This document shows, one piece after another, positions 7,229-9,755 of a stretch of 64,000 bases of DNA; positions within the stretch are counted from its first letter, which is position 1; the number at the start of each line of letters is the position of its first letter. The DNA lies in NCBI GenBank assembly GCA_965215015.1, contig OZ244042.1, forward strand, positions 5,879,282-5,943,281, written 5' to 3'. The notes under the pieces were generated by a model that had not been told where the DNA came from, did not search any database, and saw only the letters and a list, made by a program, of their open reading frames with translations. This DNA is from Candidatus Poribacteria bacterium. GTDB lineage: Bacteria; Poribacteria; WGA-4E; PCPOR2b. Made by a program: the position numbers and the translations under genes.

Positions 7229-7654
7229 TTACATTTCGATTATGACAAACACGCACATGATGAAACCAATCTCCACTATATAAAAAATAACAAGAGTGAT
7301 AGAAAAGATTGCAGCTATCCAGCTACATTTGGGCTTGTTTTTGTGCTTCGTAGGATTCATCTCGAAATCGGTATCGGATTGAACTCTGATTTCATCGTAT
7401 ACCTGTCGAAATAACCTCTCCTGCCAGAGAAAGTATCCGTCCAGAATCCAAAATCCTAGGACGGGGAGAATAAGCACCAAGACAAAATATGGGTCAAAAT
7501 CTGGGTTTTGTATGTTCTGTCTGGTGATTAAAACCATCGCTGCAACAATGATGGTCATGCTCCAACTTTTGACTAAGAAACTGTTGCTTCCCAAACGGTT
7601 AATAACAGCTTGGGTCATTTTCAAATGTTCTACGACCTTTTCTGTACAGTTCAT
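7229..7654 (-). CDS. small 3-TM membrane protein, candidate TIR-associated effector
   Basis: ATG after GGAGG; EHLKMTQAVINRLGSNSFLVKSW...FWILDGYFLWQERLFR; three hydrophobic segments. Confidence 0.7.
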   Translation of the reverse strand: MNCTEKVVEHLKMTQAVINRLGSNSFLVKSWSMTIIVAAMVLITRQNIQNPDFDPYFVLVLILPVLGFWILDGYFLWQERLFRQVYDEIRVQSDTDFEMNPTKHKNKPKCSWIAAIFSITLVIFYIVEIGFIMCVFVIIEM

Positions 7655-7743
7655 GGGTTTATCCTCCAATTTTGAAATGTGGTAGCCTAACCATAAAGCT
7701 AGTATCCTTTTGAGGACTTCCTCTACAATGAAGATTTCCTCGT

Positions 7744-8412
7744 TTACCCTTGCACCGTTTTCGTTATATTGTAATCACCTATCCTTTCTCTTATACCTTC
7801 TGCTGTTTCAAGATAATATTCTTTGTTTTCTATAAAATCGCCCCATTTAACCGAATCAATGTAGGAGCTATGGCCCATATAAACAGGGTTGCTAGGAGGA
7901 TGGCGTAGGCAGTTGTTAAACGTAGGTCTTTTTATGTTAAACATATTATCTCGTAGTATCTGAAAGAGACTAAGGGTCTTTAGAACTCTGCAATGGCAAG
8001 AAGGGCAGGTATCATCTTCAAGAAAGTAGCTATATGATGAATATTGGTCCGGCAAAACAACTGCTAATATCGCATTTGTTCGGCTTGTACGCCCATGCCG
8101 TACAATTTCTTTCAGAGAGTATGAAACTTCCCACGGAATCCATTGGTCAGATTCATTTTGCCTCGAATCTTTCATATTTGGTGAAATTAGGACAAGTGTT
8201 AAACTGCTGTCGTATATTTTGTCTTTTAGGTGAGATGCGATAGTTTCATCCTGAAATTCGCTTAAATCTTCATCACCTTCCCCTTTATAGATTTCATCAT
8301 TTTCAAATAGCTCAATTAGTTCATCAACATAAGCACGGGCAGTTGTTCCCCCCCTAATAGACTGAACACTATCATCAGCATGTTTATAGGAAACAAAAAT
8401 TTTTCTGGCCAT
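7744..8412 (-). CDS. ThsB-like TIR domain protein (MTH538/DUF1863-like)
   Basis: [31 protein letters not shown] with the TIR catalytic Glu. Confidence 0.85.
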
Positions 8413-8449
8413 TTAGTTGTTACTCCTTATTAATTGCCCCGCTCCTCCA

Positions 8450-8543
8450 TTGTCTGAATCGCGGATTGTCGCAGATTCAAAGATGGCACGAATTCAAGAA
8501 TCCGCGCTATCGGTGTCAGTTGTTTAATCCAAGATTCGGACCA
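8450..8543. repeat. short palindromic MITE-like element
   Basis: TTGTCTGAATCGCGGATT ... AATCCAAGATTCGGACCA is an 18-bp imperfect inverted repeat (4 mismatches). GATTCAGACAA also occurs near 32587. Confidence 0.55.
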
Positions 8544-8567
8544 TTTATTCTGTTGCTCCCGCCACAA

Positions 8568-9755
8568 TTAGAGCGGGCAGACTCCATCTACTTCGATGAT
8601 AGGAGGCTCAACGTCTGTGTCCTGTCGAGGACAACGCCCTTTAAATCTGACTTGTAACTCTCTTGAGTTCAAAAGCTCTAAATCCAATTGAAGTACATCT
8701 TCAACCGTGTTTGAAAGTTTCAAGTAGAGCACCGAGATTAAACGAGCGAATTTCTCGAACCTCCCGGTTGTTTGTCCAAAAGACTGATAGAGCGTTGGGA
8801 TAGGGGATTTGAGGATTTGTAGACCAGTTTCATGATATGTGCCGTCTAATTGATACGCCAGATTAGGTCGATTTAGAAAAGGACTGACAGTTTCTGGCTT
8901 TTCATCGAGAAGAATTCTTCTTGTTCGCATTTCGGCGATTTGATCCGGTGAAATATTGCTGAATGTCATATCACCAAAAAAATTGTCATGTTGTCCGTGA
9001 CTATCCTCTTCCAAAACAACTTCCCAAACGGTTTGAGAGCCAGACGTAGTTTGAGAAATCTCCCGTGGGGTTACCCATGTGGCATCTTCCCCGAGCGCAA
9101 AACCAAAGATATTATGAAGAGGAACCATGCCGCCAAGATTGTTTCGCAGTGAACGGAGAAAGGCAGCTTCTTCGGATAGTTCTGGAAGTAGTTCAAGATA
9201 GATTCCCGTTGAATCCCAACGCGCATTTTGCAATGGAACAAAACACGATTGCTTGTCTTTTGTATATAATAGTACAAATTCACTAGGAGCACTCACAGCT
9301 GCAGCAGACATTGATATATCACTGCTCGCTGGCTGCGATGTGTTGCCCGACAACTTCGTTACTAAGGTTTGATAGATTTCTTCCATATTCATTGAATTTA
9401 AATCAAGATATCCGACTGTCAACAAAATTCCTGGAATCTCTGTATCGTCAATCCGGATCGGAAGAATATACTCCTGGTTTTCCTGAAACGCCCTTGCTTG
9501 AGCAGTTTGGAGCTCGTGTTTCGTCCACAACCTCTGTGCATAGTGTTTAGACAGAAATATGACACAGTAACGCGCTTGATCCTTGTAAATCGATGAAAAG
9601 TGATCATAGAGGTTTTTGCCCCAAAGTTGTGGCTGCTCAAATTCATCATAAAAGACAGAATATCCCCCTGTCTTGAGAAGTTTGGCTAACTGCTCGGCGG
9701 AGTCTCGATCCTCCCCAGCAAACGACAAGGCAACGTCATATTGTTTTTCTTTCAT
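8568..9755 (-). CDS. TIR_2 domain protein with uncharacterised C-terminal domain
   Basis: YDVALSFAGEDR, VFYD, WTKHEL (catalytic Glu), YILPIRIDD in the first ~135 aa; the remaining ~250 aa are not recognised. Confidence 0.85.
   Translation of the reverse strand: MKEKQYDVALSFAGEDRDSAEQLAKLLKTGGYSVFYDEFEQPQLWGKNLYDHFSSIYKDQARYCVIFLSKHYAQRLWTKHELQTAQARAFQENQEYILPIRIDDTEIPGILLTVGYLDLNSMNMEEIYQTLVTKLSGNTSQPASSDISMSAAAVSAPSEFVLLYTKDKQSCFVPLQNARWDSTGIYLELLPELSEEAAFLRSLRNNLGGMVPLHNIFGFALGEDATWVTPREISQTTSGSQTVWEVVLEEDSHGQHDNFFGDMTFSNISPDQIAEMRTRRILLDEKPETVSPFLNRPNLAYQLDGTYHETGLQILKSPIPTLYQSFGQTTGRFEKFARLISVLYLKLSNTVEDVLQLDLELLNSRELQVRFKGRCPRQDTDVEPPIIEVDGVCPL

Follow-up and report, generated by a model that had tools for sequence, protein, structure and literature searches.

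A probable Thoeris-type pair of a ThsB-like TIR and a small three-helix membrane protein in a Candidatus Poribacteria defence island

In type I Thoeris the effector is the SIR2-SLOG protein ThsA, and in type II, with His-ADPR, it is a TM-Macro protein. Further types are described in a recent preprint (Yirmiya et al., bioRxiv 10.64898/2025.12.03.692087), according to the available text of which the membrane is likewise the site of action in type II and the validated effectors of types V, VII and X are membrane proteins or channels. Type V, validated in the same work, combines a ThsB with ThsF, a three-TM protein labelled 'DUF2270' that was modelled as a ring with charged pockets between protomers and has 3'cADPR as its trigger. 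Type XI is given there with a 'hydrolase' effector from an actinobacterial scaffold. The literature searched contained nothing beyond this preprint on ThsF, ThsJ, or type V or type IX Thoeris. In addition, PADLOC lists a candidate system, PDC-M50, in which gene A encodes a small TM protein and gene B a ThsB-like TIR. The name 'PDC-M50' is not mentioned in the main texts of the literature searched, where no experiments on the TM family were found either.

The window analysed here is a stretch of 64,000 nucleotides from a 5.94-Mb Candidatus Poribacteria genome. A first-pass annotation had described three co-oriented, AT-rich genes for a TIR_2 protein with an unrecognised C-terminus, a ThsB-like TIR and a 141-aa protein with three TM helices, and all of these points were borne out. 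A check of the ORF list places three co-oriented ORFs on the minus strand within 7229-9755: a TIR_2 gene (8568..9755, 395 aa), a ThsB-type TIR gene (7744..8412, 222 aa), which is the proposed sensor and signal synthase, and the gene for the TM protein (7229..7654, 141 aa), the proposed effector. The GC content of the interval is 41.1%, compared with 47.9% for the whole window, and none of 246 sliding 2.5-kb windows reaches a value as low. On the same strand, the module is flanked by a HEC-01 pair, namely the ABC-type ATPase HEC-01A (5947-7113; PADLOC, 1.6e-156) and HEC-01B (5318-5947; PADLOC, 7.4e-56), both outside the module, and by a type IIG restriction-modification enzyme (9864..13418; Eco57I, 7.8e-34; REase_MTase_IIG, 6.1e-52). 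This is a defence-island context. A gene for an AlbA_2 protein also lies near the module, making the island a mosaic of HEC-01, type IIG restriction-modification and AlbA_2. The module would be horizontally acquired cargo of this island, in what is probably the genome of a sponge symbiont. It contains no SIR2-SLOG or TM-Macro domains, as had been noted at first pass; across the 5.94-Mb genome, neither SIR2_2 nor DUF2270 has any match, and the Macro matches sit away from the module and are not TM-Macro proteins. Taken together, we consider it probable that the genes at 7744-8412 and 7229-7654 constitute a two-gene module of the Thoeris type that acts by abortive infection, with the TIR_2 protein most likely an independent neighbour.

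The 222-aa TIR matches ThsB_TIR in Pfam (1.7e-6) and, in PADLOC, the ThsB model PDLC00428 (2.9e-80). Its catalytic glutamate, E95 (WIPWEV), is invariant in 17/17 aligned homologues, in line with the earlier statement that both TIRs keep this residue. The cysteines of the CPSCHC insert reported at the same time are likewise conserved, in 15 to 16 of the 17 sequences (C136 and C139 in 16, C141 in 15). Conserved as well are C168 (16/17) and H171 (17/17), so this cluster in the C-terminal extension may be a metal site.

The gene for the TM protein begins at an ATG at 7654, preceded at 8 nt by a GGAGGA ribosome-binding site, within a listed ORF of 7229-7669. The product from this start is identical to database protein P0001. 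It matches all four PDC-M50A models (PDLC04686, 2.2e-37; PDLC04685, 1.4e-31; PDLC04684, 3e-22; PDLC04687, 1.9e-19) and belongs to a family of 4063 representatives at 50% identity that has no Pfam model. AlphaFold2 predicts a monomer of long helices at residues 3-49, 55-90 and 119-140 (pLDDT 96.8). Nearly invariant columns of the family (H10, L11, Q15, R20, S25, F26, K29, W69, L71, D72, E79 and R83) agree with the motif proposed for the protein at first pass. No ligand-binding domain was recognised in the protein, and domain searches found no Macro, SLOG or SIR2 domain in it. Against solved structures, its sequence profile gave 0 matches at E<=10 and Foldseek against the PDB nothing at E<=0.001.

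To follow the association of the TM family with TIR genes, which the first-pass annotation had proposed to check, gene neighbourhoods were compared in genomes, plasmids, metagenomes and viral contigs, and a linkage was found in each. In 43 of 78 genome loci, the TM gene has a ThsB-type gene within 300 bp on its own strand; in 16 of the 78, an orthologue of the window's 222-aa ThsB is directly upstream. The remaining 35 have no adjacent ThsB-type gene, and in 29/78 three HMMs detected no TIR within 6 kb; when 68 immediate neighbours from these 35 loci were scanned against Pfam, no TIR family was among the 25 most frequent listed. Orphan TM genes of this kind occur frequently among sponge symbionts. 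A ThsB_TIR match occurs elsewhere in the genome for 4/5 'orphan' genomes, which is only suggestive of a TIR acting in trans. On plasmids, an annotated TIR gene lies within two genes of the TM gene in 11/11 loci examined, out of 142 plasmid records with a TM-family match. These loci span Priestia, Klebsiella, E. coli, Vibrio, Desulforapulum, Halorhabdus and three actinobacteria, and the two genes are separated by 2-17 bp or overlap on plasmids of Bacillota, Pseudomonadota, Thermodesulfobacteriota and Halobacteria. A TIR adjoins the TM gene in 15/26 metagenome loci and in both (2/2) IMG/VR loci, and in a Vibrio phage-like element the gene upstream of the TM gene was labelled Thoeris ThsB by its depositors. 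Among Bacteroidota, the HMMs found an adjacent TIR in only one of seven TM loci, and a Pfam scan of five neighbours from Bacteroidota loci gave no TIR; in one Bacteroidota locus, a GH25 muramidase gene is found just upstream of the TM-family gene. The commonest neighbour overall is a TIR of ~163 aa that matches both ThsB PDLC00431 (2.2e-59) and PDC-M50B (5.9e-55). Judged by the recurrence of such short gaps and overlaps on plasmids, the adjacency of TIR and TM genes goes far beyond mere co-residence in islands.

Domain fusions and modelling bear on the role of the TM protein. In one family member (P0169), a SLOG domain is N-terminal to the TM module (LD_cluster2, 1.7e-15; PDC-M50A, 1.2e-48), and in another (P0182), the module stands behind an N-terminal extension that has no Pfam match and aligns by eye to the SLOG region of the former. 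A metagenome scan with P0169 for the context of the SLOG fusion yielded stand-alone TM genes only. In Gordonia, a HIT domain is fused N-terminal to the TM module, and on three actinobacterial plasmids, where a TIR gene is adjacent, the module either forms part of a HIT hydrolase fusion or has a HIT hydrolase gene at its side. This arrangement may be the type XI hydrolase effector of the preprint, the available text of which does not call the hydrolase HIT; the window differs from it in having no HIT domain. The SLOG- and HIT-fused forms mark the TM module as a putative output domain. When four copies of the window's protein were modelled together, the self-association score was 0.52 (runs 0.31, 0.52 and 0.70) and that of the best control 0.00; a score of 0.52 is reached by 20/30 proteins solved as one-chain pairs and by 1/23 solved as single chains, a calibration from which our model departs in using its own alignment and four copies. 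Contacts agreed between runs to at least 89%, with a partner pLDDT of at least 75. Of the 16 nearly invariant residues, 9 lie in the modelled interface, compared with ~64 of all 141 residues, so conserved positions are not clearly enriched there. Collectively, the fusions and the self-association model agree with an oligomeric effector in the membrane that is gated by a signal, and the fusions together with the ThsB linkage fit a TM protein that would be gated by a TIR signal in the place of ThsA. This part of the first-pass interpretation is therefore supported.

The same annotation had left open whether the pairing was already named. It is in fact catalogued, the window's TM protein being a member of the PDC-M50A family (best match, 2.2e-37), and a three-TM type V effector, ThsF, has been validated (Yirmiya et al. 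2025). The window's pair resembles PDC-M50 further in that the 163-aa TIR adjoining the TM gene in relatives is itself a PDC-M50B match, and in that the module has restriction-modification genes beside it, which fits candidates identified by 'embedding'. It differs in that its TIR is of another ThsB subtype, with only a weak match to PDC-M50B (PDLC04688; E=0.0047, 15.1 bits), carries the Cys/His cluster, and is encoded upstream rather than downstream of the TM gene. The pair is already listed as a PDC-M50 candidate and closely resembles a recently validated Thoeris type, so this defence module is another example of a familiar type that differs in small local details. For specialists it adds useful detail but is unsurprising, given that TIR signalling is already established to act through membrane effectors. 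PDC-M50 is catalogued as a candidate only and has a very large spread across domains, in settings that include E. coli and Klebsiella plasmids, haloarchaea and sponge symbionts; its predicted effector has now been modelled, confidently as a monomer and with support for self-association.

As far as type V Thoeris is set out in the preprint, both systems consist of a ThsB TIR and a small effector of three TM helices in which no sensor domain stands apart, homo-oligomers are predicted for the effector (side by side, in the four-copy model of the window's protein), and both occur in broad taxa including Bacillaceae and Bacteroidota. By analogy, the ThsB and TM module would follow the logic of type V (Yirmiya et al. 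2025). The comparison was made through the DUF2270 label of ThsF, and the window's protein differs in having no match to PF10028 (DUF2270) even at E<=10. Weak matches occur in 4/111 family members (best, 0.0044). Membership of DUF2270 was rejected on the lack of a PF10028 match and on an hhalign probability of 8.3% against a 39-sequence DUF2270 alignment, where the aligned part is confined to TM1-TM2 and an FR..YD..R stretch. Conversely, a bona fide DUF2270 protein matches no PDC-M50A model in PADLOC, and a TIR gene is absent from the neighbourhood in all four bona fide DUF2270 loci examined. Identity of the TM family with ThsF is therefore not confirmed, the apparent similarity to DUF2270 being marginal. 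In the preprint, TIR clusters were found using hhsearch against Pfam v32 (bioRxiv 10.64898/2025.12.03.692087), so we suspect that the DUF2270 label of ThsF is a remote-homology label too. When the validated Bacillus type V system was sought by protein search in the plasmid collection, no B. thuringiensis record was returned.

Like type I and type II Thoeris, the window pair is proposed to use a ThsB TIR signal that activates a cell-killing effector, whereas neither of their effectors is in the module. From its family, the ThsB-type TIR would sense phage infection and turn NAD+ into an ADP-ribose-derived signal. The anatomy of the 141-aa protein suggests a side-by-side homo-oligomer in the inner membrane, in which the conserved cytosolic parts (the N-terminal amphipathic helix, the helix after TM2 and the DTDF-M loop) meet at protomer interfaces in the model. 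Binding of the signal at these interfaces would open or disorder the assembly, the membrane would depolarise, and phage replication would stop. A bolder version of this scheme, which we think improbable, would make PDC-M50A an effector class apart from ThsF, with ~140 residues serving as receptor, oligomeric switch and pore and a ligand pocket formed at protomer interfaces alone, by the amphipathic helix of the N-terminus together with one short loop, and with the TIR_2 protein, with its novel C-terminal domain, recruited in Poribacteria as a second sensor.

The TIR_2 domain occupies residues 8-123 of the 395-aa protein (4.7e-19), and the remaining ~250 aa match no Pfam family at E up to 10. 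AF2 modelled this C-terminal domain at a pLDDT of 79.6, and Foldseek against the PDB gave no match at E<=0.001 (best E, 5e-3; TM-score, <=0.29). The first-pass suggestion of two TIRs serving as alternative sensors of one system was not supported. If the three genes were one system, both TIRs would sense different phages and feed one membrane effector; several ThsB genes are present in some defence islands described in the preprint (bioRxiv 10.64898/2025.12.03.692087), the glutamate E81 (WTKHEL) of the TIR_2 protein is intact and invariant in 7/7 aligned homologues, and the order TIR_2, 222-aa ThsB, TM is found again in three further genomes from the phylum (loci L084, L086 and L087, also as L002, L008 and L028). 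Among 29 loci of full-length TIR_2 relatives, 6 have a TM gene within 1.5 kb, and its placement follows two different patterns. In the other 23, however, there is none, and an FRG-TPR gene is immediately downstream of the relative instead in 22/29. Moreover, the C-terminal domain also occurs without a TIR domain and with other N-termini, and 155 bp separate the TIR_2 gene from thsB. We consequently regard a three-gene system as unlikely. Given the frequent FRG-TPR pairing and the usual lack of a TM gene, the TIR_2 protein seems to be a module in its own right. Most likely it is an independent TIR module next door that has here lost its usual FRG-TPR partner, and it is possibly an additional sensor.

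The roles within the pair could also be reversed, such that the TIR is an NAD+-depleting effector and the TM protein, rather than killing in response to a signal, serves as its sensor, anchor or regulator. Some bacterial TIRs are NADase effectors, a case discussed and excluded in the preprint text (bioRxiv 10.64898/2025.12.03.692087), and both the lack of a known ligand-binding domain in the TM protein and the orphan TM genes of sponge symbionts would agree with such roles. Yet the partner TIRs match PADLOC Thoeris ThsB models (2.9e-80 and 2.2e-59), the nucleotide-binding domains SLOG and HIT, both of the input type, precede a C-terminal TM module as expected for an output module, and the validated type V, VII and X effectors point the same way, which makes the reversal very improbable. 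We attach least weight of all, and hardly any, to the three genes being unrelated island neighbours with no functional coupling: the mosaic island and the 35/78 TM loci without an adjacent TIR would fit, but TIR-TM adjacency with gaps of 2-17 bp or overlaps recurs on plasmids of four distant groups.

Two further Pfam assignments of the TM protein were rejected: 8xMP (PF24838; 18.9 bits, below the cut-off of 30), which 3/111 family members match at E<=0.01, and DUF3278 (PF11683; 20.7 bits, below the cut-off of 26.6), which 11/111 match at E<=0.01. The literature searched contained nothing relevant on '8xMP' or 'PF24838'. In the ESM Atlas, the clusters nearest to the protein are unnamed; one with 8xMP in 20% of its members scored 0.88, which we take as a lead only. 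Finally, the TM family is found in just 3 of 50,697 phage records and two IMG/VR contigs, and these rare phage-borne copies adjoin a ThsB gene where examined; a general holin role was therefore rejected.

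The region at 7229-9755 contains three minus-strand ORFs in the same orientation. The upstream gene (8568-9755) encodes a 395-aa protein whose residues 8-123 match TIR_2 (4.7e-19), the middle gene (7744-8412) a 222-aa ThsB-type TIR (Pfam ThsB_TIR, 1.7e-6; PADLOC ThsB PDLC00428, 2.9e-80, spanning its full length), and the last gene (7229-7654) a 141-aa membrane protein of the PDC-M50A family, here called the TM protein. The TM gene starts at an ATG at 7654, 8 nt after GGAGGA (the listed start is a TTG at 7669), and the database protein P0001 has the same sequence as its product. 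The GC content of the three-gene module is 41.1%, versus 47.9% for the window, and lies below that of all 246 sliding windows of equal size. The ORFs, domains and GC content agree with the three co-oriented, AT-rich genes described in the first-pass annotation. The module, flanked by a type IIG restriction-modification gene on one side (9864-13418) and a HEC-01 ATPase pair on the other (5318-7113), is cargo of a defence island, acquired by horizontal transfer. An AlbA_2/HATPase_c_4-type protein, assigned by similarity to an annotated cluster, is encoded in the same island at 1179-2402; at locus L002 of a related genome, the island's order is identical without the HEC-01 insertion.

The TM protein belongs to no Pfam family: matches to DUF3278 and 8xMP fell under the curated cut-offs, and DUF2270 gave no match at E<=10. 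All four PADLOC PDC-M50A models match it, the best at 2.2e-37. Its close relatives form 881 clusters at 90% identity, and a profile search of a 50%-identity library returned 4063 representatives at E<=0.001, 2078 of them at E<=1e-10. An AlphaFold2 model from 111 sequences (pLDDT 96.8) displays three long helices (3-49, 55-90 and 119-140), bearing out the expectation of a small protein with three transmembrane helices. In this model, helix 1 is read as a putative amphipathic cytosolic N-terminus passing into TM1; TM2 would then continue into a cytosolic helix, followed by a conserved DTDF-M loop and TM3. No solved structure resembling the protein was found, by sequence or by fold. Among sponge-associated MAGs of many phyla (loci L001-L078; Poribacteria, Binatia, Nitrospirales, Gammaproteobacteria, Latescibacteria, Dehalococcoidia and others), identity to the TM protein is 54-84%. 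Because this identity is held across phyla, often by "orphan" copies without an adjacent TIR, it suggests exchange within sponge microbiomes and a constraint unusually strong for a defence gene.

The TM family is largely linked to TIR genes, as had been anticipated. The best 80 of 220 relatives gave 78 distinct genome loci, mostly from sponge-associated Poribacteria, Binatia and Nitrospirales, and in 43 of these the TM gene has a co-oriented ThsB-type gene no more than 300 bp away. A ~163-aa ThsB type, which matches ThsB PDLC00431 (2.2e-59) and PDC-M50B (5.9e-55), lies directly downstream of the TM gene and its cluster occurs in 35 loci; the 222-aa type of the window lies directly upstream in 16. 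Of 142 plasmid records with a TM relative, 11 were examined, and all 11 have an annotated TIR gene at most two genes away. The two genes are directly adjacent in eight (Priestia, Klebsiella sp., two E. coli, K. pneumoniae, Vibrio, Desulforapulum and, as an archaeal case, Halorhabdus), while in three actinobacterial plasmids they are separated by a HIT gene or the TM module carries HIT as a fusion partner. An adjacent ThsB-type gene was found in 15/26 metagenome loci, with a weak TIR_2 match in one more, and the pair recurs in both IMG/VR loci and in a 14-kb Vibrio phage-like element, where depositors had marked the neighbour of the TM gene as Thoeris ThsB. In this Vinavirales-classified element (L171, 14.4 kb; region 1347-2635), the ThsB gene (depositors' DefenseFinder note) and the TM-family gene overlap by 4 bp. 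Since it is carried together with an integrase on this small element, the defence pair is mobile cargo.

An adjacent ThsB-type gene is absent from 35 of the 78 genome loci (best 80 of 220 relatives), and three HMMs detected no TIR within 6 kb in 29 of the 78. When 68 genes immediately next to the TM gene in the 35 unlinked loci were scanned with Pfam, the 25 most frequent families listed included no TIR. Only one of seven Bacteroidota loci has an adjacent TIR by HMMs, and the five neighbours scanned with Pfam, a set leaving out those of loci L115 and L119, include none. Action of a TIR in trans on "orphan" TM genes is possible, because four of five "orphan" genomes have a ThsB_TIR match elsewhere. 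In one Bacteroidota genome (L113), a GH25 muramidase-domain gene (2015-3391, minus strand) lies upstream of the TM-family gene (1486-2007), 5 bp from it, in a lysis-cassette-like arrangement.

Domain fusions bear on the role of the membrane protein. Protein P0169 carries a SLOG domain (LD_cluster2, 1.7e-15) followed by the TM module (PDC-M50A, 1.2e-48), P0182 carries the module behind an N-terminal extension of similar appearance without a Pfam match, and a Gordonia protein has a HIT domain followed by the module. HIT fusions or neighbours occur at the actinobacterial plasmid loci L124, L127 and L129. Because SLOG and HIT are nucleotide-binding input domains, the TM part takes the place of an output module. 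Four-copy prediction of the TM complex scored 0.52 (runs 0.31, 0.52 and 0.70), and the best of its three controls 0.00. Among proteins of solved structure, the 0.52 mark was reached by 20/30 pairs of one chain and 1/23 single chains, although the prediction used a custom alignment and four copies, unlike the calibration. At least 89% of contacts agree between runs, with partner pLDDT of at least 75, and the modelled contacts bring the DTDF-M loop (96-99) of one protomer against helix 1 (8-15) and residues 86-90 of the adjacent one. This interface shows no clear enrichment of conserved residues (9/16 nearly invariant versus ~64/141 overall, by our count), and a ligand pocket between protomers is a candidate put forward by analogy with ThsF. 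TIR signalling to a membrane effector is probably how the module works.

Collectively, these findings describe a real Thoeris-type TIR-plus-membrane-effector module of a kind already known. The proposed Thoeris-like system is thus likely to stand as a TIR-TM pair, but the pairing is not unnamed: PADLOC lists it as PDC-M50, among the 145 so far untested candidates reported in the available text of Payne et al. from "guilt-by-embedding". The name PDC-M50 was not found in the main texts of the literature searched. The available text of a December 2025 preprint (Yirmiya et al., bioRxiv 10.64898/2025.12.03.692087) describes 29 putative Thoeris types, including a validated type V, enriched in Bacteroidota, that comprises ThsB and ThsF. 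ThsF, annotated as DUF2270 (PF10028), has three membrane-spanning helices; its model is a heptamer in which charged pockets lie between protomers, and 3'cADPR is its trigger. Our module shares this architecture and logic, ThsF being compared through its description and DUF2270 label, but membership of the TM protein in ThsF or type V is unproven. PF10028 matches 4/111 TM-family members weakly, hhalign of the family against DUF2270 gave a probability of 8.3%, a true DUF2270 protein matches no PDC-M50A model, and four true DUF2270 loci inspected lie in metabolic contexts without TIR genes. In Bacteroidota, PF10028 occurs in 1/301 genomes and PDC-M50A in 7/301. "ThsF/DUF2270" is therefore probably a remote-homology label for the PDC-M50A family. 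Local peculiarities are the ThsB subtype with a Cys/His cluster, the neighbouring orphan TIR_2 gene and the spread among sponge symbionts.

The two TIRs had been proposed as alternative sensors. Relatives of the TIR_2 protein occur in 74/176 genomes of the phylum, the window's own included, and we inspected the 1.5-kb flanks of 29 loci with full-length relatives, other than the window's locus. A ~415-aa FRG + TPR gene is present in 22/29, directly downstream where inspected, but the TM gene in only 6/29 and the 222-aa ThsB in 3/29, which argues against the proposal; no FRG-TPR homologue was found in the window at E<=0.01. The TIR_2 protein most plausibly represents a separate TIR module, standing beside the Thoeris pair in a few Poribacteria, an extra sensor being the minority reading. 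No Pfam family was assigned, even at E<=10, to the ~250 residues beyond its TIR_2 domain, and no PDB structure matched their AF2 model (pLDDT 79.6) at E<=0.001; this C-terminal domain is also found alone and with other N-termini. The TIR_2-CTD and FRG-TPR genes form a conserved two-gene unit in 22 of the 29 loci L084-L112 (for example L089:1498-2709 and 2838-4085). Its only PADLOC matches are to single-gene candidates, PDC-S66 for the TIR part and PDC-S15 for the FRG part, and the unit may represent a TIR defence module not yet described.

Both TIRs keep the catalytic glutamate, as first noted: E81 of the TIR_2 protein is invariant in 7/7 homologues and E95 of the ThsB-type TIR in 17/17. A metal site is possible in the latter, because 15-17 of the 17 sequences keep each of the CPSCHC cysteines, C168 and H171. 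Searches of the window's own genome returned one TM-family gene, no SIR2_2 or DUF2270, and Macro matches unconnected with the module. A MacroD-like gene ~16 kb before the window (L172/L174, G000:C1:5862046-5865394), in a metabolic context and unrelated to the module, is apparently interrupted by a stop or frameshift, leaving ORFs of 101 and 222 aa. A second ThsB-type gene (186 aa; ORF 1273-1833, minus strand) lies away from the module at L080 (G000:C1:1506705-1510013). It is overlapped downstream by a 168-aa gene (803-1309, minus strand) with no PADLOC match and no obvious TM segment, and the two are another possible pair of a TIR and an unknown effector.
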